DNA of 19,547 nt from a virus (taxonomy: Duplodnaviria > Heunggongvirae > Uroviricota > Caudoviricetes), in the IMG/VR virus record IMGVR_UViG_2671181100_000008, positions 1-19,547 of that record; one strand, given 5' to 3'. Position numbers and translations under genes: made by a program. Positions 1 through 18,515 of the stretch are shown piece after piece (positions within the stretch are counted from its first letter, which is position 1; every line of letters begins with the position of its first letter). The notes under the pieces are model-generated. The model saw only the letters and a program-made list of their open reading frames with translations, was not told where the DNA came from and did not search any database.

Positions 1-411
1 ATGCCTGCCCCCGTCGTCCTGATCCTTGCGGCCGGGCGTGGAGAGCGCTTTCTCGCCTCCGGGGGAAATACCCATAAGTGTATCGGCTGGCGTCAGTCCC
101 CGGAGGTTGCGCCTTATCGCTGGCCATTTGAAGAAAACGGGAGAACTTTCGACCTTGCGATTGAACCGCAGATTACGACTAATGATCTGCGTCTGATGTT
201 GAGGCTGGCTCTTGCCGGCGGAGGAATAACAATTGCCACTCAGGAAACTTTCAGGCCATATATTGAAAGCGGTAAGCTTGTATCGCTGCTTGATGACTTT
301 CTTCCACAATTTCCGGGCTTCTATCTGTATTTCCCACAGCGTCGCAATATTGCACCAAAGCTCCGCGCCCTGATTGACTACGTCAAAGAATGGCGGCAGC
401 AATTGGCTTAA
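1..411 (+). CDS. LysR-family transcriptional regulator, C-terminal fragment (5' end lies outside window)
   Basis: ORF open from base 1 in frame 1, stop TAA 409-411; translation resembles the C-terminal substrate-binding region of LysR-type regulators; GC-rich host-like composition contrasting with the AT-rich DNA that follows. Confidence 0.6.
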   Translation: MPAPVVLILAAGRGERFLASGGNTHKCIGWRQSPEVAPYRWPFEENGRTFDLAIEPQITTNDLRLMLRLALAGGGITIATQETFRPYIESGKLVSLLDDFLPQFPGFYLYFPQRRNIAPKLRALIDYVKEWRQQLA

Positions 412-535
412 ATGTCTGCACCTGCACTGCCTGATGTCAGAACAGTATTTTGATGAATTGCCAAGGTTACAATGGCACAAATACGGCACAGGAGGAAACG
501 TGGTGTATTTAAATATGGGGTAACTCTTTGATTTT

Positions 536-554
536 AATGGTGCGATAATAGGAG
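536..554. repeat. att core-like repeat: imperfect copy (one-base deletion) of the tRNA-Thr 3' end found at 12397-12416
   Basis: aatggtgcgataataggag at 536-554 versus aatggtgccgataataggag at 12397-12416, same orientation; proposed left boundary of the integrative element. Confidence 0.5.
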
Positions 555-613
555 CAAATCATAAAAACCAACCAATTGATTTATATGAATAAAAAAATTA
601 AAACATTATTAGG

Positions 614-633
614 TACCCCCAAAAGTACCCCCA
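614..633. repeat. Tandem TACCCCCA motif pair (possible arm-type recombinase binding sites), left end of element
   Basis: tacccccaaaagtaccccca at 614-633 matches tacccccataagtaccccca at 12265-12284 at 19 of 20 positions, same orientation, each just inside one end of the element. Confidence 0.4.
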
Positions 634-849
634 GATTTTCTTGTTGCCATCTAAATTGTTTAAAAAACATTCTATTGATGTTGATACCACAATTTAAGAA
701 CTGCCTTGAAGCATATCAAGTTAGCTAGACGTCAAAATGGCACTCTGGGAATTTGTGTTTTAGGCCCAACCTTAGTGATGTTTGCCGTACAGCTCCCTTT
801 ATGGTCATCCTATGGTAAAGTTAAGCTCCCTTCGAAAGGAGACCCCCAA

Positions 850-1977
850 ATGACGATAACAGCCTATTCTAGAAAATTTAAGCGTGAACTGGATGCTAAG
901 CAGTTGGAAAACCTTTTCGAACGTAGCAACTCAGATCCTTCTTTAAGTTTTAGAGATTTTGTTAAAGAGGATGTTGAATGCCCGGCATGCAATGTTTCTG
1001 GTGGTTATTACGTTTCGGAAGGAAGATCGCTCAGTAACGGCAAAGTTGTAAAGCAAGCACACTTTGCATTTCGAGACAATCTAGGTAAAGACTCTCACCT
1101 CCCATTTTGTGATTTTTATACTGGAGATGATAAGTTGAACGTTGTTTCAAATGAAGGCCGAATTGATTTTATGCGCTCGGGTTCTGAAGCGACACGCTTA
1201 ATAGGTCTTATGGTCTGCGCGGGAATTCAGGAGAAGATTTTTACGCAAGAAGATATACGTAACATGCGCCAATGGTTCTTAGATTTAAGAGAAAAAGGCA
1301 CTTTTACATTTAATTTAAGCCCTCACATAATTTACCTTGCAAAGGCCTCATTGATTAGATACAAGAGAAACTATGATAATTATGTTGTCGATCTCAGCGC
1401 CACAAACAAAAGTTGGTTCGACATCAATGAGGAAGTATATCAATCCCTTTATTTCAAGTACCCTCAATTCTATCTAAACCGTAATGAGAATCCTGAACTT
1501 TGGAATGTAAGGCTTAAATCAGTAGTCAAAAAAGCAAGAACTATAGTAATTAAAGACTCTGGAACATCAACATTTGACAGATCAATTCTCAACGAAAAAT
1601 ATGAGATAGCTACTCAAATGGCAAGACTGATTCGAGACTACCACCCTCGACTCCGTATGATTATTAGTTACACACCAACATCTATCAAAGCAAACAACCC
1701 ACTCATGGCTTTATCTGCATTATTATTACATGTTTCCGATTGGAATATTCAGGAAAGTTGTAAAAAAATCCAAGCAATTTTAGCAGTTGAGAAAGTTGAC
1801 GATAATTCTGCAGGAAACATTATTGGATTAAACCCATTCATTCACCATAGCGCTTGGATTCTTGTTAAAGCTTTAAACGACTTACATTCTAATTTAGACA
1901 AAGAAATTGATTTTGATAAAGCATTCAACGAAGAAAAAGAGAGGCTCATGAAAATTTACTATCCAAATGGTCAATAA
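850..1977 (+). CDS. Hypothetical protein (375 aa), putative partner of the downstream SIR2-like protein
   Basis: ATG at 850 preceded by AAGGAG (836-841) with 8-nt spacing; stop TAA 1975-1977; the ORF-track start at 706 is a TTG without an RBS. AT-rich. No domain recognisable by eye; one CPAC motif. Confidence 0.7.
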   Translation: MTITAYSRKFKRELDAKQLENLFERSNSDPSLSFRDFVKEDVECPACNVSGGYYVSEGRSLSNGKVVKQAHFAFRDNLGKDSHLPFCDFYTGDDKLNVVSNEGRIDFMRSGSEATRLIGLMVCAGIQEKIFTQEDIRNMRQWFLDLREKGTFTFNLSPHIIYLAKASLIRYKRNYDNYVVDLSATNKSWFDINEEVYQSLYFKYPQFYLNRNENPELWNVRLKSVVKKARTIVIKDSGTSTFDRSILNEKYEIATQMARLIRDYHPRLRMIISYTPTSIKANNPLMALSALLLHVSDWNIQESCKKIQAILAVEKVDDNSAGNIIGLNPFIHHSAWILVKALNDLHSNLDKEIDFDKAFNEEKERLMKIYYPNGQ

Positions 1978-2068
1978 CAAGTAAATTCTTATCTCTACAG
2001 ATAAATACATACTTGAGCTGTGTTCTAACAAATTTTAATGATTACCACTAATATATCTCGGGGGTCAA

Positions 2069-3568
2069 ATGAATATAACGGATTTTCTAAAAGGCTACAG
2101 AAACCATCCAATATTATTTGTTGGAGCAGGTTTCAGCATGAGATACTTATCAATTTCTTATAGCTGGCCGGCACTCTTAGAGAAAATTAGTATTGACCTG
2201 ACAAACTCTAATGAACTATATAAAGATCTTGTCAGAGAAAACAGTAATAAAGATGGTATTATAGACCTTCCAAAAGTGGCAACGCAATTAGAGCAAATAT
2301 TTGATGCAACACTTAAAGCAGATAGGAATGGAAAGTTCAAAAATATCAATGACTTATACTACAGCTCGGAAGATACCTCCTCAAATATTAGCAGATTTAA
2401 AATCTATCTTTCACAGTTAGTGAATATCACAGATTTAAAATTAGGAGTTCAAGATGAAATATCTGAATTAGTAAAAGCCTCCAAAAATATTGCCTCTGTG
2501 ATTACAACAAACTATGATAATTTTATCGAAAGTGCAATTGGTTATAACCCTGTAATTGGGAATGATATACTTTTAAGCAATCCTTATGGTTCTGTTTATA
2601 AAATTCACGGATGCGTTAGCAAACCAGAATCCATAATAATAACTGGTGATGACTATGTTCATTTTGATAAAAAATATGAGTTGATTCGTGCTCAACTCCT
2701 ATCCTTATTTATACATAACCCGATTATATTTATGGGGTATAGAATAGGTGACCCTAATATTAAAAAAGTATTAAAAACAATATTTTCATACATACCACCT
2801 CGTTCTAAAATTGCAGAAAAAATAAAAAACAACTTCCTTCTGATTGAAAGAGAAGAAGGCATTGATAATTTAAACGTTGTCTCTCACGATCTCGAAGTAG
2901 AAGATGCTGGGTTAATTAGCATTAATAAAATCGTTACAGATAACTTCTCAGACATATATAAAGAACTTGCTCAACTGCACTTACCAGTTTCGGTAATGGA
3001 TATACGCAGAGCAGAGAGTGTCTTTGGTAAAATAAAGGAAGGCGGAGACATAAAAGTAAAACTTGTTGGGGATTTGGACACGCTCAGAAATGATGAACTT
3101 GTTCTAGCCGTCGGTTCTGTTAACTCTATAAAAATACACATGCAAACACCTCAGGAGATGATGGAAAACTATTTTGATCTAATTTCAAATCAGGAGTCGC
3201 ATGTTGTCGAGTTGCTTGACAAGTTCACCATCAATAAAAGATCATATTTCCCAGCTTATGCTTTTCATAAATTCAGTCCAGGTGTTAAATGCTTAACATC
3301 ATTAATGAAAAATCAAAAAAGATTAATAGCGTCAAACTATGCTAGGTTACCCAAGAATCAAAGAATAGTAGAACACACCATTGAAGATATTTACGCTAAA
3401 CATTCAGATATTGATAGCAAATTACAAAATATTATTTTCTTCAATGCTCATGATGGACATATATCCTTGGAAGATTTAGAAAAACATGTCCGAGAATTTA
3501 AGGACAAGTCTCATACTGATTATCGCAAACTTTTAGCATTGTATGATTACCTCGCACACAATGTATAA
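2069..3568 (+). CDS. SIR2-like domain protein (499 aa): N-terminal SIR2_2-type putative NADase domain, C-terminal half unassigned
   Basis: Motifs seen in translation: ILFVGAGFS (res 15-23), ITTNYD (145-150, Asn148 codon 2510-2512), KIHGC (His180 codon 2606-2608), FMGYRIGD. Same strand as and 91 bp downstream of the 375-aa gene; AT-rich. Confidence 0.8.
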   Translation: MNITDFLKGYRNHPILFVGAGFSMRYLSISYSWPALLEKISIDLTNSNELYKDLVRENSNKDGIIDLPKVATQLEQIFDATLKADRNGKFKNINDLYYSSEDTSSNISRFKIYLSQLVNITDLKLGVQDEISELVKASKNIASVITTNYDNFIESAIGYNPVIGNDILLSNPYGSVYKIHGCVSKPESIIITGDDYVHFDKKYELIRAQLLSLFIHNPIIFMGYRIGDPNIKKVLKTIFSYIPPRSKIAEKIKNNFLLIEREEGIDNLNVVSHDLEVEDAGLISINKIVTDNFSDIYKELAQLHLPVSVMDIRRAESVFGKIKEGGDIKVKLVGDLDTLRNDELVLAVGSVNSIKIHMQTPQEMMENYFDLISNQESHVVELLDKFTINKRSYFPAYAFHKFSPGVKCLTSLMKNQKRLIASNYARLPKNQRIVEHTIEDIYAKHSDIDSKLQNIIFFNAHDGHISLEDLEKHVREFKDKSHTDYRKLLALYDYLAHNV

Positions 3569-3694
3569 TTATATACATTATCATTGTGATTATAGTTAGC
3601 AAAACTGCAACTGATGGTTTTATACGATTACTAGTTGCAGCCGCAGTTTACAGATCACATCAACTGTAACTTAGAGCGTTTAGAGCCAAAAATT

Positions 3695-3715
3695 CCCGCT
3701 GGTATAGCCAGCGGG
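3695..3715. terminator. GC-rich hairpin between convergent operons, candidate bidirectional terminator
   Basis: cccgctgg (3695-3702) pairs with ccagcggg (3708-3715) around a short loop; an A-run lies before it and gttttg after it on the plus strand, so a T-run follows on either strand. Confidence 0.4.
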
Positions 3716-4011
3716 TGACAGGTTTTGACTGATGCAACCAACGAGCTGTACCTGAAGTTTTCTAAAGGGGGAGAGGTTGTCACTTTCCCCCTGGTTTTCC
3801 CTAGTAAGGCATAACAAACCATAACAGGCTGACACCTGCGCTGCTTCGCATCAGGACTAACAAAAGCTAACCGCCGGGCTCAACAAAGCTCAACGCAAGC
3901 CCTTTACACTTCTGCTCTAGCTGCTGTTCGCAGGCGTCAGGATCCGTTAGGTTGGGTTGACACTTTTCCCAGTTTCTCGCGAAAAAGTGTCAAGTTTGAG
4001 GGCTGGGGGGT

Positions 4012-4509
4012 TTACAGTTTTTCGCCGTCCAGCAGGCAGAGTGACATTAAACCAGTTTTGTTCCAGTCATCCAGCGTATCGGGGTGCATTGTGGCAACGT
4101 AAGCCAGCTCAGAACGAAGAAACCGTAAAGCGCCTGCTGCACGGTCTTTGCCATAGAAGCTGTGGGTTTCTTCATCCGGCCGGAAGAGAATCAGCAATTG
4201 TTCATCGGACTCGTGCTGAACATCAAAACCCAGCTCAGCGGCTGCTGCCTCTATTCGCTGGCCAGCATTAATATCAGCCGGCAGCTCTTTCCCGCCGTCA
4301 TGCCCCCATACCCACGCGGCGGCCTGCGCCCACGTCATTGCATTGTGATGATCACCAGCACCAGCACCAGCAGAATTTTGCTTCGCCTGTGTTGCTTCAA
4401 CATCCACTTTATCGCCTGATAGCACAATCTCACCACGTGCTATCCAGCCGTAAACTGTTTGTCGGCTAACGCCCATATGCCTGGCGTAGGCTGATTTACT
4501 TAACAGCAT
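4012..4509 (-). CDS. HTH DNA-binding protein (165 aa), possibly terminase-small-subunit-like or packaging-redirecting
   Basis: ATG at 4509 with GGAGGG RBS upstream on the minus strand; N-terminus MLLSKSAYARHMGVSRQTVYGWIARGEI is a typical helix-turn-helix; last gene of the minus-strand operon. Function is inference. Confidence 0.55.
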   Translation of the reverse strand: MLLSKSAYARHMGVSRQTVYGWIARGEIVLSGDKVDVEATQAKQNSAGAGAGDHHNAMTWAQAAAWVWGHDGGKELPADINAGQRIEAAAAELGFDVQHESDEQLLILFRPDEETHSFYGKDRAAGALRFLRSELAYVATMHPDTLDDWNKTGLMSLCLLDGEKL

Positions 4510-4543
4510 CGTGTGTTTCCCTCCGGGCAGAAAAAAGCCGCCA

Positions 4544-5338
4544 TCAGGCGGCCTGTTTCCCATCTTCATCATCTGCTTTACCCTGTCGGGAATTAATTTT
4601 TTCCATACCATCAATGTACTCGGACAGATTCGCCAGCCCGGAGACTCGAGGAGCCACATCGCGAGGGTCGTCATTGCTTCCAAATACCAGATTTGCATAC
4701 CATGTGCGAACAGCGATGATTTGCTGCAGGTTGCGGTTAATGGCTTTTACCAGGTTAGAAACAGATTTGATAACGGCTCCGTTATCTGTGGCGATACGGG
4801 CAAAAGTCAGTCGCTCCAGCTGAGAATCTGTTACGCCTGAGCAAATGGCGTTACCTCGTAGCAGGGCGTCACATAAATCAGTCTGATTCCCGGCATACAT
4901 TGCTACCATCAGCTTTTCTTTCGCAGCTCCATCCAGCGAGCGAAATACATTCCGTAGCTCACTATCTCGCATAAATCCGACAACATCACCCTCGGCCAAC
5001 GGAGCAACTGGGGCCAGTTTGGTCTTAAGATAATTGAGAATATTTTCAGCTTGTTCGCTGATCATCGCCGTACTTCTAGTGAAAGCCGTGAGTGTGTCTC
5101 TATTTGCCGCATCTCTGGCCCGGCGGTTTTTTGCTGCTTCGTTTAAATCCGGATCATTGCGGATAACCTCTACGGCATCGGCTTCCGCCTCAGCTAACAT
5201 TGCCACGGCCCGCAGATCACCAAAAATATTCGTCATCCCTTTAAAAAGAATCGCCATCTGCTCATTAGGCGCAACCACTTCAGAAACGTTATCAGTGATA
5301 GCAATGCTTCTTTGCCCAATTTTAATTTCGTAACTCAC
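4544..5338 (-). CDS. Hypothetical satellite/phage protein (264 aa), GTG start
   Basis: GTG at 5338 preceded by GGAGGT; no in-frame ATG upstream before a stop; start overlaps the stop of the upstream small gene (GTGA overlap at 5335-5338). Confidence 0.6.
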   Translation of the reverse strand: MSYEIKIGQRSIAITDNVSEVVAPNEQMAILFKGMTNIFGDLRAVAMLAEAEADAVEVIRNDPDLNEAAKNRRARDAANRDTLTAFTRSTAMISEQAENILNYLKTKLAPVAPLAEGDVVGFMRDSELRNVFRSLDGAAKEKLMVAMYAGNQTDLCDALLRGNAICSGVTDSQLERLTFARIATDNGAVIKSVSNLVKAINRNLQQIIAVRTWYANLVFGSNDDPRDVAPRVSGLANLSEYIDGMEKINSRQGKADDEDGKQAA

Positions 5339-5508
5339 TGGCTTACCTCCATTCTGGATAGCCCAACATCAAATATTTTTCTCGCCACATCATGGATTGA
5401 TGGTGCGATACCAAACCCGGATTTCTGGCGTTCCTGCTCCTGGATGGCTTTTAATGCCGCAACCTGAGCAGCGCTCAGAAGAACGGGTTTCACGTGTTCC
5501 TTTTTCAT
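5335..5508 (-). CDS. Small hypothetical protein (57 aa)
   Basis: ATG at 5508 with G-rich RBS (AAGGGGG); the longer ORF-track start at 5547 is TTG; translationally coupled to the 264-aa gene. Confidence 0.5.
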   Translation of the reverse strand: MKKEHVKPVLLSAAQVAALKAIQEQERQKSGFGIAPSIHDVARKIFDVGLSRMEVSQ

Positions 5509-5639
5509 GCTTCCCCCTTGGTTATCACATGATAAAAAACGCAACAATCACAATAATCATTGCAAGTAATGAAATGATGGTAATGAAATCGAGGGGATGC
5601 ACAACGTGAAATGAATGGATGCGTTTTAAAGAATTTGCC

Positions 5640-5890
5640 CTCAAGGTATACATGGTGTTCATAAAGGCTATAAATTGCTTATAAAACATAATATTAACCT
5701 ATGAACACCAGCCTACATTTTGGGATTTCAGGTCTACACGGTATACATCATTCTGTTTAATAAACGATCAGATGGTTAATGAGAGAATGAACACCATGTA
5801 CACCCTGTGTATACCTGAAAACAAGGTATACATGGTTTATTGCACTGATTTATATATAAATTATTCTCTCGATGTATACCATGTATACCT
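5640..5890. repeat. Iteron-like cluster of a 12-bp motif GGTATACATGGT in both orientations (putative replication origin or operator)
   Basis: Exact copies at 5645-5656 and 5825-5836 (direct), exact inverted copy at 5878-5889, degenerate copies at 5740-5751 and 5793-5804 (inverted), half-site at 5808-5816; AT-rich spacer immediately downstream of the primase gene. Confidence 0.55.
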
Positions 5891-5911
5891 TTCTCCATAT
5901 TTATCTGAACT

Positions 5912-7675
5912 TCATTCTTTATGACCGGCTACAGGATGCGTCTGAGGTAACCAGTCTTCCGCACTCTCTGAAAGTTCAACGTTGGTCACCATGCCACGGG
6001 CTCTCCGTTCCTTACGGTACTCGTGATTAAACTCCCTCATCGCGCTTTCCATCCCCTCTGCGAATTTATTCAGCGTCAGCGGCTTGTCGAAACCGTTGGC
6101 CTCCAGGAATGCCAGGTAAGCGTGATAGAGATAAATTCGCGGATAGTGAGGCGGATTGCGGTTTCCTACCATCATTCCCGCACAATCAGCCAGCCGCTCA
6201 AGATGCGCGCAGAAGGCATAAAGCGGATCCGTTTTCTGCTTCACCTCCAGTGCTTCTTCGCTGTTCCGTTGCTCCAGCAGCAGCGCCCGCGCTTTTTCCG
6301 GGTTCGCAAAGTTCGCCAGCAGCCGACGAACCACCACCGGAATTTCAGCGGATATCTTTTCTGCCAGGTCGGGATCTTTATCCTCCTCGCTGACGCGCCG
6401 GTTAAACTGGAAAATTACGCGTCGCCGGGAAACGCCGCCGGCACGTTCGGTGAAAATCATCGGCGTGTTGTTCGTGGCCACAACCACCGCCCGCAAAACG
6501 GCGGTGTACTGGTGCTCGTGTTTCGGGTCGATCTCCACGGCATCCCCGCCGGTTATCGCTTTTATCCCGGTACCCTCTCCTGAATATTTGGGCTGATCAG
6601 GAAGCGTTATCATGCTTTTCCCGACGAACTGCGCCCGCCCGCGCGCGCTGTCGAGCGCCGCCATGTTCCCGCTGGCGGTGTTATGCGCACCGGCCAGCAT
6701 CGTAGCGATATGGGTAAAGACACTTTTCCCGCTACCGCCATCACCGGTTATCTCGAGGAACAGCTGCCAGTCGTACCGGTTCGCCAGCACCATAAAGAGC
6801 GCTGCAGCGATGCGCTGCATCTTAATTGCGTCTCTATCTGATGCGTAACTTAGCCATTTATGGAAGTTCGGCGCGTGGTCGCGGAGGTTTTCGCCCGGTA
6901 CCGCTGGCGTGTAGGTCACGCCGTTATGATTGGTTAGCCAGTTGTCCTGGCTGTGTTCGGAGAAAATGCCGGTTTCCATATCGTAGACACCGTTTGCAAA
7001 GGGGATCAGGCTCCGCCGCGGCTCCCCCATCACCGGGATAACGATTTTCAGGGCGTCGATAACGTTGTTGATCGCGCGCTTGCTGAAGTTGGTTTTGTTC
7101 TCGTTGTAGATAGCCACCATTTCGCGGCTCAGCTCGAGCATAGACGTTTTCTCCCAAATGCCGGCGCGGTAGACGTACACGCCCTCGCTGTTTTCGTTGA
7201 TTGCAATGCCGGTGTAACGCGCGGCCAGTATGAGCGCCTTTTCGTTATCAGCCAGGTCGCGGAGGTTTACATCCGTCAGCGGTTTGCCGATCACCATACT
7301 TTTGCCGGCTTCCGCATCGGCTTTGAGGCGCGGCAGCTGCGGCGTCCAGTCCTCCAGAAGCTGATAACCTTCAGAGTAGAATTGCGCGCGCTCCACGCCG
7401 GCCACCGCCAGCTTTGTCGCGAGAATGGTTATCTGCCGTTCGGTCAGATGCCCGCCGCGGCAAACCCGGGCATAGAGCCGGCCATCATCAACAATGCGGA
7501 TATTCTCCAGCTCCGCCAGCTGCTTTTTATCCAGCACAACCGGCGGCACCGTGTCGCCAATCGGGTTCATTTCCTGCCATGCTTTGGCGAACGTCCAGGC
7601 ATCGGCGCCGGCAAAGATGATTGACTCCTCCATGAGATCCGCCGGCTGCTTTTTAAGGTTTGGTGCATTCTTCAT
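5912..7675 (-). CDS. Primase/helicase-like replication protein (P4 alpha / D5-type C-terminal NTPase family), 587 aa
   Basis: Walker A-like GDGGSGKS in translation; size and context typical of satellite/PICI pri-rep genes; ATG at 7675 overlaps the stop of the upstream gene (ATGA). Confidence 0.8.
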   Translation of the reverse strand: MKNAPNLKKQPADLMEESIIFAGADAWTFAKAWQEMNPIGDTVPPVVLDKKQLAELENIRIVDDGRLYARVCRGGHLTERQITILATKLAVAGVERAQFYSEGYQLLEDWTPQLPRLKADAEAGKSMVIGKPLTDVNLRDLADNEKALILAARYTGIAINENSEGVYVYRAGIWEKTSMLELSREMVAIYNENKTNFSKRAINNVIDALKIVIPVMGEPRRSLIPFANGVYDMETGIFSEHSQDNWLTNHNGVTYTPAVPGENLRDHAPNFHKWLSYASDRDAIKMQRIAAALFMVLANRYDWQLFLEITGDGGSGKSVFTHIATMLAGAHNTASGNMAALDSARGRAQFVGKSMITLPDQPKYSGEGTGIKAITGGDAVEIDPKHEHQYTAVLRAVVVATNNTPMIFTERAGGVSRRRVIFQFNRRVSEEDKDPDLAEKISAEIPVVVRRLLANFANPEKARALLLEQRNSEEALEVKQKTDPLYAFCAHLERLADCAGMMVGNRNPPHYPRIYLYHAYLAFLEANGFDKPLTLNKFAEGMESAMREFNHEYRKERRARGMVTNVELSESAEDWLPQTHPVAGHKE

Positions 7676-7986
7676 TTTCTGTTCCCTCGCTCCCTGATGA
7701 TTTCCCGCATGACACGAATTCGCTCGATGCCCTGTACCCGCATAATCCGATCGATATCTTTTTCGCCGGCGACCGGCGCGGAAGAAACAAATTCAAATTC
7801 CCGCACCAGTCTTTCTGGCGTGCAAAAACACGGTGAGCTGTACCCCTCGCGGCAATATGTCACTCTGTCGAATCGGTAACTTTCGATAATTACGATGCTG
7901 CCCCGGCTGTCCTTCCATTTATCGCCCGGCCTGATTTCAGGGTGAGCGCGGCCACCAGCAGCTAAGCCGGAAATTTTAATCGTCAT
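7672..7986 (-). CDS. Hypothetical protein (104 aa), replication operon
   Basis: ATG at 7986 with GAGGT RBS; stop overlaps the primase start. Confidence 0.55.
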   Translation of the reverse strand: MTIKISGLAAGGRAHPEIRPGDKWKDSRGSIVIIESYRFDRVTYCREGYSSPCFCTPERLVREFEFVSSAPVAGEKDIDRIMRVQGIERIRVMREIIRERGNRK

Positions 7987-7996
7987 ATTTTTTACC

Positions 7997-8200
7997 TCAC
8001 GCCGCTGGCGGGATTACCTGATAACCAATCTTCTTCAGAAAGCGCGCGGCACTCTCCACCGTGAAAAGGATCTCGTCGTCCATAAGGGGGCGCATCGACT
8101 GCAACCCGTTCGACGTGTCCACCAGATAGCGGCCGCCGGCCGGAAAACTGAATACAGTTTTGCCATCGCTACAGCGCACCAGATTATAAATAGCGGTCAT
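7997..8200 (-). CDS. Hypothetical protein (67 aa)
   Basis: ATG at 8200 with GGGAGG RBS; ATGA overlap with the upstream gene stop. Confidence 0.5.
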   Translation of the reverse strand: MTAIYNLVRCSDGKTVFSFPAGGRYLVDTSNGLQSMRPLMDDEILFTVESAARFLKKIGYQVIPPAA

Positions 8201-8412
8201 GGTCTGACCTCCCTGACTTTCACCAGATATTCCGATGCCTGACTGACCAGGCTGTGAACCGCCGCGACACGAAAGCTTTCCATTTCATCATCCGGCGCCA
8301 GGGTGTTTATCCACATATCGAGAACGGCAAGCGCCTGACGGCTGTATTCAAGCGCCTGGCCTGCGCTGGTCGTCAGCATGGCAATGGATTCGTTTTGAGT
8401 TGGCTTTGTCAT
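8197..8412 (-). CDS. Hypothetical protein (71 aa)
   Basis: ATG at 8412; ATGA overlap with the stop of the recombinase-like gene. Confidence 0.5.
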   Translation of the reverse strand: MTKPTQNESIAMLTTSAGQALEYSRQALAVLDMWINTLAPDDEMESFRVAAVHSLVSQASEYLVKVREVRP

Positions 8413-9284
8413 GCATTCACCTCCATAGCGAGGCGTGTCTGGATAGCCGCGGCCTTGCTCCCCAGCTGGAGATAAGTCCGGGTGATTGCCGGGTTACTGT
8501 GTCCGAGCATTTCAGAGGCGACCAGCAAGCCCTGTTCGCCGCCGGCGGACATGAGATTAAAGGCGGCAATTTTGCGGCTGGAATAGGCGCTCAGGCGCAG
8601 ACGCGTGTTTACTACGCGGGTAAACCACACCATGACGTTGTGCAGTTTCTTCCAGATCGTCTGACGGCTAACGCTACCTTCCAGAGACTGGCAACGGTTA
8701 CTTTCAATCTGGCTGCGGGAAAATACCAGGTCGTCACCGATAAGATTGCGCTCCATGCGTTCCCGCAGTCGTTTGATGATGCCCGGCGGCAGCTGTTTGG
8801 TGTCGTGCTTCACTTCAGCCTTTGCCACCAGCTCAAACACAATCGCCTGTTCTTCTTCCGTCATGCCGGCGGCCAGCTCGTCGCAGCTCACGCTATCCCA
8901 GTGCATGTACCCAATGTGATCGCCAGCAAGCCGGGCAGCGTCCTTGCGCTGCTGGCGAACAATCTCGATCCCCTTCCGGGTCGCTCTGGCTTCCGCTGCT
9001 TTGGTCTGCTTCGCCACGATGATTGTTGCAATGCCGGTTTCCCAGTTGATGCAGGAGTAACGGAAGTTGCACACGTCGCTGGTACGCCAGCCGGTTACGG
9101 TCGCAATATCCCACCAGAGTAAAACCCACTCCGGCTGGGTCTGCTGGATGCGTTCGCGCAGTTTGCGCTGCTCTTCCCGTTCGTAAACGGGGGTCATGGT
9201 GCGGGTGCCTTTCGTGGTAGTGGCTTTTACCACGTTGCCGCGCAGCTCGCGGGCTTTAGCTGTCAGGGTCTGGAGGTTAAACAT
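8409..9284 (-). CDS. Tyrosine recombinase-like protein (291 aa) embedded in the replication operon
   Basis: Internal ATG at 9284 with GGGAGGT RBS (the 517-aa ORF-track extension has no support); C-terminal LGHSNPAITRTYLQ matches the tyrosine-recombinase box II pattern; candidate box I Arg in TGWRTSDV. Confidence 0.65.
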   Translation of the reverse strand: MFNLQTLTAKARELRGNVVKATTTKGTRTMTPVYEREEQRKLRERIQQTQPEWVLLWWDIATVTGWRTSDVCNFRYSCINWETGIATIIVAKQTKAAEARATRKGIEIVRQQRKDAARLAGDHIGYMHWDSVSCDELAAGMTEEEQAIVFELVAKAEVKHDTKQLPPGIIKRLRERMERNLIGDDLVFSRSQIESNRCQSLEGSVSRQTIWKKLHNVMVWFTRVVNTRLRLSAYSSRKIAAFNLMSAGGEQGLLVASEMLGHSNPAITRTYLQLGSKAAAIQTRLAMEVNA

Positions 9285-9522
9285 GGCTACCTCCCAGTTT
9301 CGCAACATCCAGTTCAAACGCGCCGCTACTGTATTGATAAAGCGAACATTCAGAGCGAATTTTGGCGGCAAAGATAAGATCCCAGCGGGAATAAAACTCG
9401 CGGGCTTCTTGCTCACTGTCGGCAACGATGCGGATAACAACGGGAGTACAGGTCCGGCCTTTCGGCGTACCGAGGAAAAGCCAGGTGAATTTGGGCAGTT
9501 TTTGGGTTGGGGTAGTAGCCAT
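9277..9522 (-). CDS. Hypothetical protein (81 aa), first gene of the replication operon
   Basis: ATG at 9522 with GGAGG RBS at 8-nt spacing; 3' end overlaps the recombinase-like start by 8 nt. Confidence 0.5.
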   Translation of the reverse strand: MATTPTQKLPKFTWLFLGTPKGRTCTPVVIRIVADSEQEAREFYSRWDLIFAAKIRSECSLYQYSSGAFELDVAKLGGSHV

Positions 9523-9724
9523 GTGGCAGCCTCCATACAGTGGTCTAGATAACCACCACCGGAAACGCCAATTTCACTGGTGGTGGACTGAGCAGGGTTG
9601 GCGTAACCGGACTGTATGGACTCCGGCGCGGATTTCTCCGCCCCCACCCAGCCCACCATAATTTTGCTAGCAGAGCGGTTTTGAACCACAACGCGTGAAA
9701 ATAGGTGAGACGGATCAACGGCAC

Positions 9725-9746
9725 AAAAAAAGACGCTTGGCGCGTC
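9725..9746 (-). terminator. Rho-independent terminator on the minus strand, downstream of alpA
   Basis: Minus strand reads GACGC-GCCAA-GCGTC followed by seven T (plus-strand A-run 9725-9731, stem 9732-9736 and 9742-9746). Confidence 0.5.
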
Positions 9747-9993
9747 ATGTGTCGCCATACAGTCATTCAGGACGCCAATCCTGACACCAGATTTTGCTGG
9801 TGCTTTTAAAGCATACCCTTCAGTTGAATAACAAGGCAAGGAGTTTTTAGGGTGAGCGAAGCCCTGCCCCAGACGGGCATAATTGTTCTTCATGGCATTA
9901 ACCTTTTTGAATTTTTTAGTGAGCTGTCGCGACGAACTTATTCTGCGAGATCTGAAGTGCAAACTCTCGCAAATTATCTCAGCTCACGGAATC

Positions 9994-10191
9994 TCAGTTC
10001 GTTTGGCTGCGTGACGATTCAATGCGCTCACTAATCCATTCATCAATTTCGCTTTCAATGAAAGCAATTGCTCGAGAACCAATTTTTATGGATGAGGGGA
10101 AACGTTGCTCAGCCATGAGTCGATAGATCCAAGCCTTGCTATAGCCGGTTCTACGCTGAACTTCAGGTAAGCGGATAAGGGATTGGGACAT
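9994..10191 (-). CDS. alpA: AlpA-family phage transcriptional regulator (65 aa)
   Basis: Translation LIRLPEVQRRTGYSKAWIYRLMAEQRFPSSIKIGSRAIAFIESEIDEWI is the characteristic AlpA HTH; ATG at 10191 with GAGAGGT RBS. Confidence 0.85.
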   Translation of the reverse strand: MSQSLIRLPEVQRRTGYSKAWIYRLMAEQRFPSSIKIGSRAIAFIESEIDEWISERIESSRSQTN

Positions 10192-10358
10192 ATATACCTC
10201 TCGAAGTCTAATGTGGTCTACGAGGTATATTTCAGCAAAAACAAGAGGGGAGTTGTGGAAGTCACAGTAAATCAGTTGGAAGCAGCTCTTCCACGGAAAC
10301 AGAAGTACGGCCAGAAGTTTTAGAACCTGTAGATCGTCTTTTTGGAAATCCTTACGGG

Positions 10359-10949
10359 CTATTTGGAAGCGTACGTGTTCAGAGCTTCATCAATTAGCAT
10401 AGTCAATGCCTTATCAGTCACATCGATGCCATCGCCATGCTCCAATATGATTCTTGAGGCACTTCTGGCAACTTCGGATTTGTTCAATTTCTTACCGCGA
10501 ACATATTTTCCACCCGCTTTTTCAAGCGCAATCGCCATACCAGCGATCAATTTCAAAGCAGTGTCTTTGCCAGCGAACTCGCCCCATACCCCAGGAACAT
10601 GTTCATTAGCATGAGCTGCATTTTCTTCCTCACAGCCATACCATACATCTTCAGCAGATAGCTCTTTGATTGCCCAGGACCAAATATCTTCAGCGTAAAA
10701 CTCAGCGTTGACAAAATTACCGCCGATATCAGTCCAAACAGTTTTCGGGCTTAGCTCTTTGTTAAGAGCCGCTTGAATGATACGAAAATAGCTACAAGCC
10801 ATGTTGTATCTTTCGGGGTCATAACTTTTATCAAATTCTCTTAAGCATGCAAAACGATACACACCGGCCATAGCCATTGCAGCCTGTTCAGCAGTGACCA
10901 CACGTTGTCGGCGAAGATGATGGGGCATGTTGAGGATGTTTTCTCGCAT
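10359..10949 (-). CDS. Hypothetical protein (196 aa) between int and alpA
   Basis: ATG at 10949 with AGGAAG RBS; no domain recognised by eye. Confidence 0.6.
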   Translation of the reverse strand: MRENILNMPHHLRRQRVVTAEQAAMAMAGVYRFACLREFDKSYDPERYNMACSYFRIIQAALNKELSPKTVWTDIGGNFVNAEFYAEDIWSWAIKELSAEDVWYGCEEENAAHANEHVPGVWGEFAGKDTALKLIAGMAIALEKAGGKYVRGKKLNKSEVARSASRIILEHGDGIDVTDKALTMLIDEALNTYASK

Positions 10950-11017
10950 AAAAGCTTCCTGCTAACGATAGTCTACAGAAGTCTACTACTGTCAATTAGC
11001 ACTGTCTATACATACAG

Positions 11018-12232
11018 TTAAGCGCTTTTCCCAAACGTTCCGTGCACTACATTTTCGCCGTTTTCCAACGCCTCCATATAGTCGGCATACCACTGGAGCA
11101 TTTCGCGGCGGCCATCCAGATACTGGGCGTGGTTGTACGTTCCTCGTATAGAGTTTTTGTCGACGTGTGCCAGTTGCGTTTCAATCCACGCGGTGTTGTA
11201 GCCCTGTTCGTGCAGGATGGTACTCATGGTGTGCCGGAAACCGTGCCCGGTGACTTTTCCGTTATAGCCAATCCGCTTGAAGACTTGGTTTATGCTGGCT
11301 TCACTCATTGTTTTCCGCGGATCGTTACGGCCTGGGAACACAAGCGGGTAATTGCCTGTTAGCTCTTGGATCTGACCAATAAGCGTAAGAGCTTGCCTGG
11401 ACAACGGCACCACATGAGGGCGACGCATTTTCATGCGTGAGGCGGGTATTTCCCAGACCGCCTTACTGATATTGATTTCATCCCAAAATGCCCCACGGAG
11501 TTCGCCGGGACGCAATCCGGTGATAATCAGCAGACGAGCAGCCAAAACTACTAACTCGCTTCCTGAATATCCTGACAACGCATTGAAGAAATCAGGCAAT
11601 TCTTTAGGTGTGAGGAAAGGAAAATGATTGGACTCGTGCCCTTGCATCGCGCTGGTGAGATCCGGGGCGGGGTTATACTCAGCTCGACCGGTAACTATTG
11701 CGTAACGGAAAACTTCCCCACAGCGCTGCCTAACTTTTCTTGCCTTTTCGGTAGCGCCGCGCCCCTCAATGCGCCGCAGCACATTCAACAGTTCAAGCGG
11801 TTTGATTTCGGCTATTGGTTTTTTGCCAATGTATGGGAACACATCTTTATTGAAGGCTTCGAGGATGTCTGAAGCATAACCAGCAGACCATTTTTTTAGT
11901 TTGCTGCTGTGCCATTCAAGGGCAATATCTTTGAAGGTGTTGTTTAGCTGAATTTCACGGGCAATCTTCTCCTCCCGTTTCGCTTCCATAGGATCGATAC
12001 CCCCAGCGATACCCCTTTTCGCTTCTTCACGTTTTGCCCGAGCATCGGCCAATGTGACTTCAGGATAGACACCCAGAGCTAACAGCTTCTCTTTGCCGGC
12101 TACACGATATTTGAGCCGCCAGTATTTGCCGCCATTAGGTTTGATAAGGAGATACAGACCGCCACCATCAGCCAGCTTGTAAGGCTTATCTTTAGGTTTA
12201 GCGGCCTCCACCTGCCGGGCGTTAAGTTTCAC
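11018..12232 (-). CDS. int: Site-specific tyrosine integrase, P4 type (404 aa), GTG start
   Basis: N-terminal arm-binding-like region (KLNARQVEAAKPKDKPYKLADGGGLYLLIKPNGGKYWRLKYR) and C-terminal catalytic region (HGFRHT, NHAQYLD); GTG at 12232 preceded by AAGGAGG and an in-frame stop; adjacent to the tRNA-derived att sequence. Confidence 0.9.
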   Translation of the reverse strand: MKLNARQVEAAKPKDKPYKLADGGGLYLLIKPNGGKYWRLKYRVAGKEKLLALGVYPEVTLADARAKREEAKRGIAGGIDPMEAKREEKIAREIQLNNTFKDIALEWHSSKLKKWSAGYASDILEAFNKDVFPYIGKKPIAEIKPLELLNVLRRIEGRGATEKARKVRQRCGEVFRYAIVTGRAEYNPAPDLTSAMQGHESNHFPFLTPKELPDFFNALSGYSGSELVVLAARLLIITGLRPGELRGAFWDEINISKAVWEIPASRMKMRRPHVVPLSRQALTLIGQIQELTGNYPLVFPGRNDPRKTMSEASINQVFKRIGYNGKVTGHGFRHTMSTILHEQGYNTAWIETQLAHVDKNSIRGTYNHAQYLDGRREMLQWYADYMEALENGENVVHGTFGKSA

Positions 12233-12296
12233 TTGGGGGTACCTCCTTTAGACCGAACAGCATATACCCCCATAAGTACCCCCAAACGACCGTAGA

Positions 12297-12381
12297 TTTC
12301 AGGGAACTGTAGTAGACGTAGAAATACCAAAAGGGGCTGTAAAGCGCAGATTATAAGGGGTTTCAGTGAACTTTAGTAGAC
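12297..12381. repeat. Two 21-bp direct repeats (12297-12317 and 12361-12381) between int and the att core
   Basis: tttcagggaactgtagtagac versus tttcagtgaactttagtagac, 19 of 21 identical; the embedded 9-mer gtagtagac recurs inverted at 10981-10989. Confidence 0.45.
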
Positions 12382-12398
12382 TTGGGGAGACGTTAGAA

Positions 12399-12444
12399 TG
12401 GTGCCGATAATAGGAGTCGAACCTACGACCTTCGCATTACGAAT
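12399..12444 (-). tRNA. Partial tRNA-Thr (anticodon CGU, thrW-like): 3' 46 nt only, from anticodon loop to CCA; serves as att site
   Basis: Minus strand reads ATTCGTAATGCGAAGGTCGTAGGTTCGACTCCTATTATCGGCACCA with a T-arm (GGTTCGACTCC), acceptor 3' strand, discriminator and CCA; the expected 5' half is absent from 12445 onward. Identity with thrW is from memory. Confidence 0.7.
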
Positions 12445-13191
12445 TATAAGAATCCGCTTCTAATTCAAAGTATTACCCCATCAACACTGTGCTCACACGT
12501 CCCACCACATCAAAACATGTAAAGCCTTGCAAGCCATTGTGAGGCCTTATGTGTCTCAGTTTTGTCCCACCTTGTATTATGACTTGCATAGCCAATGAAG
12601 ATAAACGTGACGACAAACAGCGCAGCAGTCTTCTTTTCTTTCACACTTTCCCCAATCAGCATACATACTTTCTACCATAACTGTAGTGAATGTCTGTTAT
12701 GAGCGAGCAAAAGAGATTCAATTACCGGGGAATTACTCCGACATAAGCTCTCCCAGAAACACCGGAACAGCGATTCGCATATTCTCTTCTATACTTTCAG
12801 TCTGACCGGCTGGAGATTTCATAGCAAGAAAATGGATGCGCCAAGACCTATGCGGGAAAGAGGCTGAGGAAATAATTGCCGATAGCACTGTGCCCGACGA
12901 AAAGTTAATCTGGCACGCAATGACGCGCGTCCTTGGGGCATCAGGAATCAGAGAGCCAACTTAACAACCCATTACATATTATTTAACCGGACTGTTACAT
13001 GTACAAAGTTCAATGATTAGTGATTCTGTGACGCCACATACAACCTAAGCCCCTGATATAAAACCAGTCTATGCAACACCTAAAAATCATATATGATAGG
13101 GTGATAAGTCAACGCGCAGTATAAAAATTAAGCTAAAAAATGCTTTCAGCATAGTGAATCTATTTCACACTACATAATTAAGGATGAAAAA

Positions 13192-14037
13192 ATGACTGCA
13201 CCAGTAATTAGTTTTATCAATATGAAAGGTGGGGTTGGTAAAACAACTTTATGCGTTGGGATTGCTGAGTTTTTAGCCAACCATATGGGGCGCAAGGTTC
13301 TAGTTATCGATATTGATCCTCAATTTAATGCCACTCAGTCCTTAATGGGGCATTATGATCGAGTAGAAGAATATATGACTGCCCTTCGCCCTAATAATCA
13401 AACCATTCGAAAGATTTTTGAGCTTCCAAATTCATTAATGGAAGATGAAAAGAAAGTGACACCAGAACAGGTCATTACTAAAGTTTCAGACAATCTTGAT
13501 ATTATCTTAGGTGATATAAACATTATCTTTGATACTAACCAAGAGGGTATTAGAATAAAAATGTTGCGTAAATTCATCACCGAAAATGACTTAAAAGAAA
13601 GTTACGACTATATCTTTATCGATAGCCCCCCAACAATCTCATTATTTACAGATACCGCACTCCTTGCTTCTGATTATTATCTTACTCCGGTTAAAATTGA
13701 TCACTACTCGGTGCTTGGAGCAAGCAGTTTAAATAGCGTTATAAGAAATATGCGCACACATCATGAGAAAGAAATCAAGCAAGTCGGTTACATTTATACA
13801 AACACTGATGCTGAAATGACCAATAAAACAAGGGAAATTAAAGAACAATTCGAAAACCATACTCAATTTACAAATTTTTATTTCTTTGAAAATCAATTAA
13901 CCTACGTGCGTGATTTAATGGTAGGTTATCAAGGAAATATTCCTTCTTGTTATTCAAAGTCACGCCAAGATATAGAAAAGATCTGTAACGAATTTATTAA
14001 CAGAGTGGCTCACTTGGAAGGTAACACAAATGAATAA
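13192..14037 (+). CDS. ParA/MinD-like P-loop ATPase (281 aa)
   Basis: Deviant Walker A KGGVGKTT near the N-terminus (FINMKGGVGKTTL); AAGGA RBS 7 nt before the ATG; very AT-rich. Confidence 0.8.
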   Translation: MTAPVISFINMKGGVGKTTLCVGIAEFLANHMGRKVLVIDIDPQFNATQSLMGHYDRVEEYMTALRPNNQTIRKIFELPNSLMEDEKKVTPEQVITKVSDNLDIILGDINIIFDTNQEGIRIKMLRKFITENDLKESYDYIFIDSPPTISLFTDTALLASDYYLTPVKIDHYSVLGASSLNSVIRNMRTHHEKEIKQVGYIYTNTDAEMTNKTREIKEQFENHTQFTNFYFFENQLTYVRDLMVGYQGNIPSCYSKSRQDIEKICNEFINRVAHLEGNTNE

Positions 14038-14428
14038 ACAATTAATTAAAGCGCTCAATAAAGCTAATAATATGCCCATGACCAAAGAAAACTTCTTAGG
14101 CTTGGTAATTATGTTGATTCTTTCAAAAGAGGTTTTTAGATCAAATTTTGATGTTAGTAAATTTATTAACAAAACCTTCAAAATATCTTTTTTGAATTAT
14201 GCTGTACGGTCAAGAACTTTGATGTGCGCTAAAATTTGCAGACATATTAATGAATTAAGTGAGAATGACATAAAGATGGCTTATACGCATTTCTTAAACA
14301 ACATTAACACATTAGACATTATTTTTAATGATGCAAATAAAACAAGCCAAAAATCCACATCTAAAAGCAAGCATGCTATAAGGAATTTAAATATTTGGAT
14401 TAATGCAAATAAAAAGGAAGAAGAATAA
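14030..14428 (+). CDS. Hypothetical protein (132 aa), coupled to the ParA-like gene
   Basis: ATG at 14030 overlaps the ParA-like 3' end by 8 nt; GGAAGG RBS; AT-rich, Asn/Lys-rich. Confidence 0.6.
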   Translation: MNKQLIKALNKANNMPMTKENFLGLVIMLILSKEVFRSNFDVSKFINKTFKISFLNYAVRSRTLMCAKICRHINELSENDIKMAYTHFLNNINTLDIIFNDANKTSQKSTSKSKHAIRNLNIWINANKKEEE

Positions 14429-15093
14429 TGCTCACGCAGGATCCCTTCAACATTGGAAGAGATGTAAATTATTTTAGAGCGGAGGTGCAAAAGCACCTCA
14501 GAACCACTGATGAAATAAACAAATCAGTATCAATATTTAGGCAAATAAGTCTTTGTAATACAATTTTAAGTCACAATCCTAATCTAAATCACTCTTCTTA
14601 TATAAAAGGTTTTATATATGATACCTTAAACTCCTTAATTGCCATTATAAAAAAAAGAGAACGGTATCTCCAACTGAACTTCCGCTCAATGGTGGAGCAT
14701 GTGGCCAGAATAAGCCTCAATAAGAACTACAATGGTGGGGATTTTGACCAAACTGTACGTCGTAGAGACTTTGACTTCTTAAAAGCCCAACAAGTCGATG
14801 AAGGCTGGTCTTATTTACATAATGTCTATATCAACGCCTGTTATTATGTTCACTCCTCCCCCCAAGCGAACCTAAATGTTACATCAACATTTATATCACT
14901 TATGGAGGGAGATTGTAATTCAACACAGCATAAAATGGTGAAAAAACTTCATGAGGTAGTATCGGCGCTGATGAGAATCATTATAAAGTATTATCATCAG
15001 CATATCTCAAACATTTTCTTTAGAAACAAAAAGGATTTAGAGAAAATAATGGGAAAAAGCCTTTATTCATATTATACCAGCTTAGACAATTAA
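14428..15093 (+). CDS. Hypothetical protein (221 aa), third gene of the ParA-like operon
   Basis: ATG at 14428 overlaps the upstream stop (TAATG); AAGGAAG RBS; no assignable domain. Confidence 0.6.
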   Translation: MLTQDPFNIGRDVNYFRAEVQKHLRTTDEINKSVSIFRQISLCNTILSHNPNLNHSSYIKGFIYDTLNSLIAIIKKRERYLQLNFRSMVEHVARISLNKNYNGGDFDQTVRRRDFDFLKAQQVDEGWSYLHNVYINACYYVHSSPQANLNVTSTFISLMEGDCNSTQHKMVKKLHEVVSALMRIIIKYYHQHISNIFFRNKKDLEKIMGKSLYSYYTSLDN

Positions 15094-15130
15094 TTCTCTC
15101 ATATTCATTGCGTAGAGCATAAATATCTAT

Positions 15131-15627
15131 CTAACCACCTAAAATGCCAGAAAATCTAGTTGTATACCGGTGCGAAAATATCTCGCGTTTCATCTGCCAC
15201 TGCTGCTGAATGCCCTGCCCAGCGAAACAGAGTGTTTCCTTCCCGTCTTTTGCATTGAGGTGCTCCAGCACGCTCATTAACTTTTCGCTCCCAGGACCCA
15301 GCGCGTTATCGTCGAATAGGTTAGGGCATGCTCTGACTGAAGAAGTCCCCCAGCATTACCCCGGCTTTCTGATATCGGTGTCCGTCTTTCCATATTGCAT
15401 CCAGACTCCCCGTTGCTACTGCAATGATATCCCGACTGTCCTGTGTCGGGATGAGCAGCTTCACCGACGCGCTGTTACAGTAGTACGACTCGTTCAACGC
15501 AAAGGGTATCGTGTAAAACCGATGATGACACTGCCGGCAATCAGCACTGACGTCAGCAAACGTGAGAAAGAACAGATAAGCCGAACGATTTAGGAAATGT
15601 TTGAAGAGACTGATATGTGGATGGTTT
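15131..15627 (-). pseudogene. umuC: umuC-like (Y-family translesion polymerase) C-terminal remnant, 5'-truncated and frameshifted
   Basis: Minus-strand translation gives ...HRYQKAGVMLGDFFSQ, then after a frame change ...NLFDDNA...LNAKDGKETLCFAGQGIQQQWQMKR...RYTTR, resembling the UmuC/MucB C-terminus as I recall it; no start codon, and the N-terminal three quarters are missing. Confidence 0.55.
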
Positions 15628-16023
15628 CAGTTTAAACGCCTTGAACCGTCATATTACCTAAGTACAATCCGCTGTGACTGGCAATCATTCAATACTTGCA
15701 CTATCAAAAGTGCATCAGCCAACCGCAGCACGTCTTGCATACGACCTGTCTGCGGTTTCAATCACCTCTCACCACCAGTCCCATCAATAATAATTAAACA
15801 GCGCCTAAACAAAATAAATAACAACAAGTCAACAACCTCGACAGGATGCCGATGGGATGATGAAGAGATAAGAAAGAATAACTAGTAAAGCCCTAAAACG
15901 TCAGCGTTCAGACGCGTTTTTTACTTAACCGGTAACAAATACGTTGTATCATAGCAACATAAAATGATTGTTCTAAATCAGATTAACTCCTCACTTTTGT
16001 ACAATGTCGCTTACAGGTATACC

Positions 16024-17913: not shown

Positions 17914-17935
17914 TGCAATTAATAAAATGATTATA

Positions 17936-17959
17936 GCGGCCTTACATTAGTAAGGCCGC
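17936..17959. terminator. Perfect 9-bp hairpin 23 nt after the GmrSD-like stop (putative terminator)
   Basis: gcggcctta (17936-17944), loop cattag, taaggccgc (17951-17959); no clear T-run on the plus strand, so efficiency is uncertain. Confidence 0.4.
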
Positions 17960-18277
17960 TACTCACTATTAAATCCTTTAATTTGCAACAAGAACAGCAG
18001 TGTCAGCCCTAGGTTTCGGACTTTGTACCGCTTATCTTGTCTTCAAAAATCAGCTCGCATCCTGCACAGTTCAGCGCATTACGAATCTGTAGCACCAATC
18101 TTAACTATCTGTTTTAGCAAGCATTAACCGCATTCACTAAGCTATAGTTGATGGCACAAACAGAAAGTTGATGCATGATGTTGTCATGTGTATGTCACAA
18201 ATGCGGCACAACGATCTTCAAACATGTAGCCACACATCCACAGAAGAGCACAAAGCCTTGCAATCCAGTGCAACGCT

Positions 18278-18511: not shown

Positions 18512-18515
18512 GCCA

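Follow-up and report, generated by a model that had tools for sequence, protein, structure and literature searches.

A compact tyrosine recombinase with a variant active site in the replication operon of a P4-like island

In IMG/VR virus record IMGVR_UViG_2671181100_000008 (Caudoviricetes; its positions 1 to 19,547 are hereafter called the window, 19,547 nucleotides [nt] long), the replication operon of a P4-like island encodes a compact tyrosine recombinase of 291 amino acids (aa) in addition to the island's P4-type integrase (Table 1). On our best reading, this recombinase belongs to the replication/maintenance module of the satellite and not to its integration module, and it represents a distinct and small clade with the active site R-K-(Y/H)-R-(H/W)-Y. 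We propose, with about even confidence, that it is a catalytically competent enzyme acting on the free circular form of the element, in multimer resolution, circularisation, or both. A sequence-only reading of the window had pointed to a second tyrosine-recombinase gene among small genes of the replication operon, upstream of the primase; Pfam and PHROG matches, fold, and catalytic residues confirm what the gene encodes, and the gene order confirms where it lies.

The assignment of the product to the tyrosine recombinase superfamily is solid. The protein has the catalytic-domain fold of the superfamily (PF00589), scores 42.3 bits against the Pfam model Phage_integrase (cut-off 27.1 bits), and matches PHROG 216, labelled "integrase," at E=1e-18. 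Its nearest relatives in both sequence and structure are simple Xer-type recombinases, with which it shares a XerD-like TRQ(T/S)xW motif; a fold search against BFVD returned generic integrases only, at template-modelling (TM) scores of about 0.5. Pairwise ratios of nonsynonymous to synonymous substitution rates (dN/dS) against nine homologues were 0.05–0.13 with dS of at least 1, showing that the recombinase is under strong purifying selection.

The recombinase gene begins with an ATG at 9284, with the sequence GGAGG 5 nt ahead of it. Its start overlaps the stop of the open reading frame (ORF) encoding an Icd-like protein by 8 nt, and its stop overlaps the start of the following 71-aa ORF in the sequence ATGA; the coupled gene junctions suggested earlier for this operon are therefore present at both ends. 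The reading frame remains open for 226 codons beyond the true ATG (8409–9962, minus strand; 517 codons in total), and this extension crosses the Icd-like gene, in another frame, as well as the region of the C4 and isrK RNAs. The ribosome-binding site (RBS) and homologues annotated at 291 aa support the short product over the 517-aa ORF listing. Many database entries (P0001, P0002, P0006–P0014, and others) are 450–499-aa fusions of Ash (PF10554) and integrase, which look like gene-calling artefacts, and RefSeq annotates a partial "ash family" pseudogene across the C4/isrK RNA region. In the mRNA, the sequence near the Icd-like start codon (9510–9524) is complementary to the recombinase RBS and ATG (9281–9295), 214 nt downstream; the predicted duplex has an energy of -28 kcal/mol, compared with -19.8 ± 2.5 in shuffled sequences (z about -3.3). 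Such pairing could tie translation of the recombinase to that of the Icd-like protein; it is conserved in the closest relatives only, and we rejected it.

Catalytic positions were assigned by aligning a profile built from 49 members of the family to XerD. In this alignment, TGWRTsD of the recombinase corresponds to TGLRvSE of XerD (R67 to R148), LSAYStRK to LSPHVLRH (Y234 to the His-I residue H244, and R237 to R247), lGhS to LGHS (H262 to H270), and kYL to IYT (Y271 to Y279); K92, within IVAKQTK, was matched by sequence context to XerD K172, within VIGKGNK. In the window protein, residues 233–238 read AYSSRK, and residues 260–273 read LGHSNPAITRTYLQ. Five of the six catalytic positions of the superfamily carry the expected residue (the Tyr nucleophile, Arg-I, Lys-beta, Arg-II, and His/Trp-II), whereas the sixth, His-I of the H-x-x-R box, is occupied by Y234. 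The altered box noticed in the sequence-only reading is thus real and reads Y-x-x-R, and the alignment it had recommended as a check found the nucleophile and both arginines in place, alongside the matches to integrase families.

All six catalytic positions are invariant, save for a single Trp at H262, in alignments of 20 and 49 sequences that span 36–97% identity. An exhaustive hidden Markov model search for the family recovered about 95 clusters at E≤1e-10; across a set of 41 clusters, with identity down to 15%, R67, K92, R237, and Y271 are unchanged, and the His-II column (H262) holds either H or W. At His-I, the close subfamily has Y ("SAYSxRK") and distant relatives have H ("CHSLRK," "CHGLRK"). 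Because His occupies the Y234 position in these distant relatives, we regard the altered box as a natural His/Tyr variant; judged from the alignments, it is a lineage-specific His-to-Tyr exchange within an otherwise intact active site and not a sign of decay, and the recombinase appears to be functional rather than degenerate, with a variant residue for general acid/base catalysis. A second active-site Tyr at the His-I-equivalent position has been described in ResT (Y293) and TelA (Y363), where it was reported to be absent from other recombinases and was proposed to serve as general acid/base (PMC11317167). The earlier suggestion of catalytic divergence needs refining: all catalytic positions are conserved, the His-I-to-Tyr exchange is fixed in the close subfamily, distant relatives keep the His, and the active enzymes ResT and TelA share the Tyr.

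The same conservation bears on the idea of a regulator that has a recombinase fold and binds DNA without catalysis, like the SPbeta/phi3T master repressors MrpR and SroF. The likeness to these proteins of SPbeta-like phages lies in the recombinase fold and in a non-integrative role inside the control region of a mobile element. The window clade retains all catalytic residues; invariance of R67, K92, R237, and Y271, together with H or W at His-II family-wide, is expected of catalysis and is unneeded by a repressor, and we consider a purely regulatory function highly improbable.

The catalytic domain is preceded by only ~27 residues, which form a single helix and a disordered segment. A search of Pfam found no N-terminal domain match for the recombinase, and the N-terminal core-binding (SAM-like) domain that forms a C-clamp is lacking. 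Between beta2 (residues 85–89) and beta3 (residues 160–164), the protein carries a four-helix insertion of ~65 aa (residues 91–155), the first helix of which is very basic and includes the family-invariant motif KQTKAAEARA. This insertion may substitute for the missing clamp domain, a role in which it would bind DNA. A recombinase without a core-binding domain would offer a test case for alternative ways of constructing a DNA clamp; likewise, a natural His-I/Tyr switch within one clade would offer a test case for whether such a Tyr acts as general acid/base, as proposed for Y293 of ResT.

Close homologues of the recombinase were identified at 11 genome loci and 80 IMG/VR loci, 91 chromosomal loci in all. 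A full-size integrase is encoded 2–7 kb upstream on the same strand at all 11 genome loci and at 70 of the 80 IMG/VR loci; at the remaining 10, the upstream sequence is too short to judge whether an integrase is present. Identity of these integrases to the window integrase falls into classes of 23–36%, 61–64%, 74%, 84–85%, and 95–100%, and the recombinase is 74–100% identical across those same loci. The recombinase is also kept where the primase is of another type (L014, L015, L018, and L019). These comparisons show that the recombinase is decoupled from integrase type. A sibling E. coli island encodes the Icd-like protein, two small ORFs, the DUF4222 protein, and the primase but no recombinase; the recombinase is therefore an optional insert in this module. 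Comparative evidence across these sequences argues that the recombinase is not the integrase of the island, and a non-integrative role, raised as one possibility in the sequence-only reading, gains support from this decoupling, from the optional status in sibling islands, and from relatives that are the sole recombinase on circular plasmids lacking an integrase.

Using TBLASTN against plasmid sequences, we identified relatives as the only recombinase on complete, circular, non-mobilizable plasmids (L109, NZ_CP056897; L110, NZ_CP093253; L111, CP067839; L115, NZ_CP055032): a Citrobacter plasmid of 8,580 bp (74.5% identity to the window recombinase), a Moellerella plasmid of 8,725 bp (51%), a K. 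pneumoniae plasmid of 8,712 bp found in two isolates (43%), and a Shigella plasmid of 13,291 bp (38%) whose other products include ParA as well as toprim and VirE proteins. Phage structural genes occur on these plasmids, either for a major capsid protein (PF20036, or PHROG 247 at E=6e-90) or for other components, and scaffold-like, TerS-like, or tail-assembly genes are also present among them. The 8,712-bp element appears as circular contigs in many metagenomes, with varied rotations and k-mer-length terminal overlaps. Metagenome contigs that carry relatives and are circular by terminal overlap measure 8.7, 7.9, 7.5, and 11.9 kb; among these, the 7.9-kb contig L010 also encodes ParA, the 7.5-kb contigs L023–26 carry the His variant of the recombinase, and the 11.9-kb contig L027 also encodes RelBE and tail genes. 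In all, relatives are the sole recombinase of an autonomous circle on the four plasmids and on contigs L002-5, L010, L023–26, and L027, a situation that does not apply to the window island; those on circular elements span 24–75% identity to the window recombinase. At the DNA level, plasmid L109 resembles the window in the recombinase gene alone.

In nearly every informative context, the recombinase gene is co-directional with a replication gene and lies directly upstream of it. The replication genes that follow it are of several types (D5_N/DUF5906, Prim-Pol plus AAA_25, toprim plus VirE, and a winged helix-turn-helix protein). Since the recombinase holds the same place beside such varied replication genes, the association is with episomal replication in general and not with one replication enzyme.

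Based on these observations, we propose that the recombinase would be expressed alongside the primase-helicase from an early operon under immunity control, at the stage when the element is free and replicating. It would perform simple site-specific recombination of the Xer/Cre type on the element's own DNA, converting multimers that arise from replication or packaging into monomers, circularising injected DNA, or both, while the P4-type integrase would handle chromosomal integration at tRNA-Thr. Phage satellites are usually described with one integrase for all site-specific recombination. If the proposal is correct, the episomal phase of such an element has its own management of DNA topology, through a conserved, separately evolving recombinase tied to the replication module, and multimers would be resolved following theta or rolling-circle replication, or once concatemers had been packaged in helper-sized heads.

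Several observations weigh against this role. Presence as the sole recombinase on circles would be equally expected of an integrase if its element had been sampled after excision, and a distant relative, P0086, sits in 34–42-kb phage contigs, where it could be a phage integrase. The function is accessory, since the gene is dispensable in the sibling island. We found no literature on the recombinase, its family, or its arrangement. The chief weakness is that no recombination site came to light: exact 11-mers compared around the gene in 14 diverged loci revealed nothing shared outside the gene, save the coding sequence of a shared alternative primase, and a scan of the island for lox- or dif-like palindromes (11-nt arms with ≤1 mismatch and a 5–9-nt spacer) identified none, although both searches would miss weak or asymmetric sites. 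The only dense inverted repeats in the island are iterons that track the primase.

These iterons (GGT[AG]T[AT]CA), which number at least nine and lie in both orientations just downstream of the primase-helicase gene, resemble the type I repeats of P4 ori/crr. The inverted GGTATACA / GGTGTTCA repeats in this cluster include a lox-like arrangement, TGTATACCT-7 nt-AGGTATACA, and sister islands with the same primase carry the GGTGTTCA variant in place of GGTATACA. We rejected the iterons as the site of the recombinase: both their variant and their presence follow the primase type, and they are missing where the recombinase is paired with another primase. The cluster is the probable replication origin, not a recombination site. 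In the plasmids, the same palindrome scan gave no consistent candidate. Two small circles that are otherwise unrelated share a non-coding block of ~620 bp at 81% identity (L109:6653–7271 and L024:6217–6833), which holds an identical 31-bp palindrome (GGTAAACGAGT-9 nt-ACACGTTTACC); we rejected this palindrome as the site given that the recombinases of the two circles differ greatly (75% and 24% identity to the window protein). A cos or ori region common to both circles is the likelier identity of the block, and it may be a cos/pac site or origin taken from a common helper.

Alternatively, the recombinase could be a second integrase, from a clade native to small satellite replicons, that in the window island either uses an alternative attachment site or persists as a redundant remnant after gain of the P4-type integrase. 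The complete catalytic set, the database label "integrase," the relatives that are the sole recombinase of small circular elements, and the one relative that occurs by itself in contigs of phage size, placed where a lysogeny module could lie, all fit this explanation. However, when one genome from each of 185,579 species was scanned, close relatives turned up on one circular contig and otherwise only in islands already equipped with a canonical integrase, and in the window the gene lies within the replication operon, 3 kb from the attachment core. Contigs of integrase-less elements bearing P0076 and P0110 never exceed 10 kb (about 30 and 27 collection blocks, respectively; about 57 together), which argues for autonomous circles rather than integrated elements, and the ParA encoded by two integrase-less elements points to a plasmid lifestyle. 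The strong purifying selection argues further against a remnant. Taken with this evidence, a second integrase seems unlikely to us.

Another possibility is that the recombinase acts in trans, by cleaving or recombining a site in a helper phage or competitor (interference or hijacking) or by cooperating with a dif-like site of the host. The 11-mer search linked no conserved cis site to the gene on diverged backbones, and the gene moves among unrelated backbones as a single-gene module, as seen in the confined similarity between the window and L109. Satellites often carry helper-directed functions in their early operons, which also speaks for action in trans. On the other hand, the recombinase matches no PADLOC defence model, on which ground we rejected a defence role, and TBLASTN against 50,697 phage records returned no match; this null result led us to reject a phage origin of the gene, and it leaves no homologue that would suggest a site shared with phages. 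Action in trans would account for the absence of a linked site, but the phage and defence searches lend it no positive support; it would also leave unexplained the steady position beside a replication gene in plasmid-like elements, and we judge it quite unlikely.

Comparison with known systems places the recombinase in the superfamily, by its fold and five of the six catalytic positions, and outside both the P4-type integrases and the telomere resolvases. Unlike the Xer-type proteins XerD, XerH, and archaeal XerA, it has no core-binding domain, carries the ~65-aa hairpin insertion, has Tyr in place of His-I, and is encoded by a mobile element, with no dif-like site identified in the island. 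P4-type (Int_SXT/P4) integrases belong to the same superfamily, and one is encoded in the same island; the domains Arm-DNA-bind_3 and Phage_int_M are both present in this neighbouring integrase and are both lacking in the recombinase, which in addition is not next to the tRNA site and does not co-vary with the integration module.

The hairpin telomere resolvases ResT and TelA resemble the recombinase in having the second active-site Tyr at the His-I-equivalent position. This shared residue would suit replication-linked strand cleavage without recombination, whether as a topoisomerase IB-like swivel, in origin nicking, or as a telomere resolvase-like activity. The features of hairpin telomere resolvases were not found for the recombinase, however: a linear replicon with a palindromic tel site, resolvase-specific flanking domains, and a closest fold match to TelK, TelA, or ResT. 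A strand-cleaving function is likewise contradicted by relatives that bear His, by the circular form of the replicons, and by a fold ranking that is Xer-like, and we consider it very unlikely.

Cre/loxP of P1 and ResD/rfsF of F provide a functional analogy for the proposed role in multimer resolution, as each recombinase is encoded by the element itself, is the sole simple recombinase of a partition-bearing extrachromosomal replicon, and resolves its dimers. Cre also circularises incoming DNA, and XerCD resolves plasmid multimers. Relatives of the window recombinase similarly sit on small plasmids bearing ParA, whereas the window island differs from the Cre and ResD systems in having a separate integrase and in lacking, as far as our scan found, a lox-like site. 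In sequence, the recombinase resembles Cre only weakly (E about 1e-3), and neither sequence nor fold matches put the two close together.

A wider reading, which we offer tentatively and regard as doubtful, is that the core-binding domain was replaced in this clade by an inserted helical DNA-binding domain, with Tyr or His at His-I, and that its members are the Cre-equivalent, in maintenance or circularisation, of unrecognised extrachromosomal 7.5–13-kb satellite plasmids of Enterobacterales with capsid or tail genes, from which the recombinase was recruited into P4/PICI-like islands (PICI, phage-inducible chromosomal island). In the literature that could be searched, we found no description of a recombinase that combines the absence of a core-binding domain, a helical hairpin insertion, and Tyr or His at His-I with a fixed place in the replication module of satellites and satellite-like plasmids. 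A compact 290-aa simple recombinase could serve as a tool, if its site is found.

The circles in question (L109, L110, L111, L115, L002-5, L010, and L022–27) are non-mobilizable elements of 7.5–13 kb from Enterobacterales without a canonical integrase. Each has either a major capsid gene or a small number of tail or baseplate genes, together with a replication gene (a primase or another type); ParA or RelBE is encoded in some cases. These circles resemble phage satellites in a plasmid state, and we found no description of them in the literature. A survey of P4-like satellites reported that these were never plasmids (bioRxiv 10.1101/2021.03.30.437493); the integrase-less plasmids with capsid genes may therefore be an overlooked plasmid-state branch of satellite diversity. 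A 34,300-bp sequence from E. kobei, deposited as a plasmid (L114, NZ_CP110875.1), consists of four tandem, error-riddled copies of the 8.58-kb capsid-gene plasmid and represents either an assembly artefact or a real tetramer. In a 42-kb phage contig with P0086, a gene pair (76 aa plus 119–144 aa) is present in five tandem repeats downstream of the recombinase (L007:12542–17294); a sister contig, L006, has a single copy of the pair.

Along the minus strand, the island has the order tRNA-Thr 3' end, integrase, a 196-aa ORF, AlpA, isrK, C4, the Icd-like gene, and the recombinase, followed by the 71-aa ORF, the 67-aa ORF, the DUF4222 gene, the primase-helicase, the iterons, ORFs of 70, 264, and 228 aa, and SIR2 cargo; the 228-aa ORF encodes a TerS-like helix-turn-helix protein. 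This layout corresponds to an immunity and replication operon of the P4 kind from which psu, delta, and sid are missing, and its gene content is PICI-like. The isrK and C4 RNAs between alpA and the Icd-like gene constitute an RNA immunity system of the P4 CI type, which would control the recombinase operon.

Table 1. Positions of the recombinase gene and of other island features within the window
Feature	Position	Strand	Details
Compact tyrosine recombinase, 291 aa	8409..9284	minus	R67, K92, Y234, R237, H262, Y271; insertion residues ~91–155
3' 46 nt of tRNA-Thr, attachment-site core at integrase end	12399..12444	minus	
Canonical P4-type integrase, 404 aa	11018..12232	minus	arm-binding, central, and catalytic domains
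AlpA-family regulator	9994..10191	minus	PF05930, E=2.5e-19
isrK-type RNA, upstream of C4	9726..9803	minus	Rfam RF01394, 70.8 bits
C4 antisense RNA (P4 CI-type immunity RNA), operon head	9576..9663	minus	Rfam RF01695, 75 bits, E=2.5e-13
Icd-like small protein, 81 aa	9277..9522	minus	RefSeq annotation of identical E. coli locus; PHROG 1743
71-aa ORF	8197..8412	minus	PHROG 2196, unknown function
67-aa ORF, same operon	7997..8200	minus	PHROG 340
DUF4222 protein, 104 aa	7672..7986	minus	overlaps primase start
P4 alpha-like primase-helicase	5912..7675	minus	D5_N, DUF5906, Pox_D5 C-terminal DNA-binding domain
GGT[AG]T[AT]CA iteron cluster	5640..5895		both orientations

The recombinase-bearing island measures ~12 kb, and positions 1–12444 of the window have 99.6% identity to E. 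coli 4/2-1, where the island lies at tRNA-Thr beside proA; the recombinase gene is present in 17 of 5,426 complete E. coli genomes. At the end of the island far from the integrase, cargo on the plus strand (706–3568) encodes a SIR2_2 protein, which matches the PADLOC candidate defence system PDC-S25 (E=7e-140), and an adjacent 423-aa protein with no family match. Past 12399–12444, the window diverges from E. coli 4/2-1; the region 12399–19547 encodes a ParA-like ATPase (13192–14037), small ORFs, a GmrSD type IV restriction enzyme (15964–17913; PADLOC mREase_IV), and a glycine-rich-domain protein that is cut by the window end (18516–19547). This region probably represents another island, arranged in tandem with the first at the one tRNA site.
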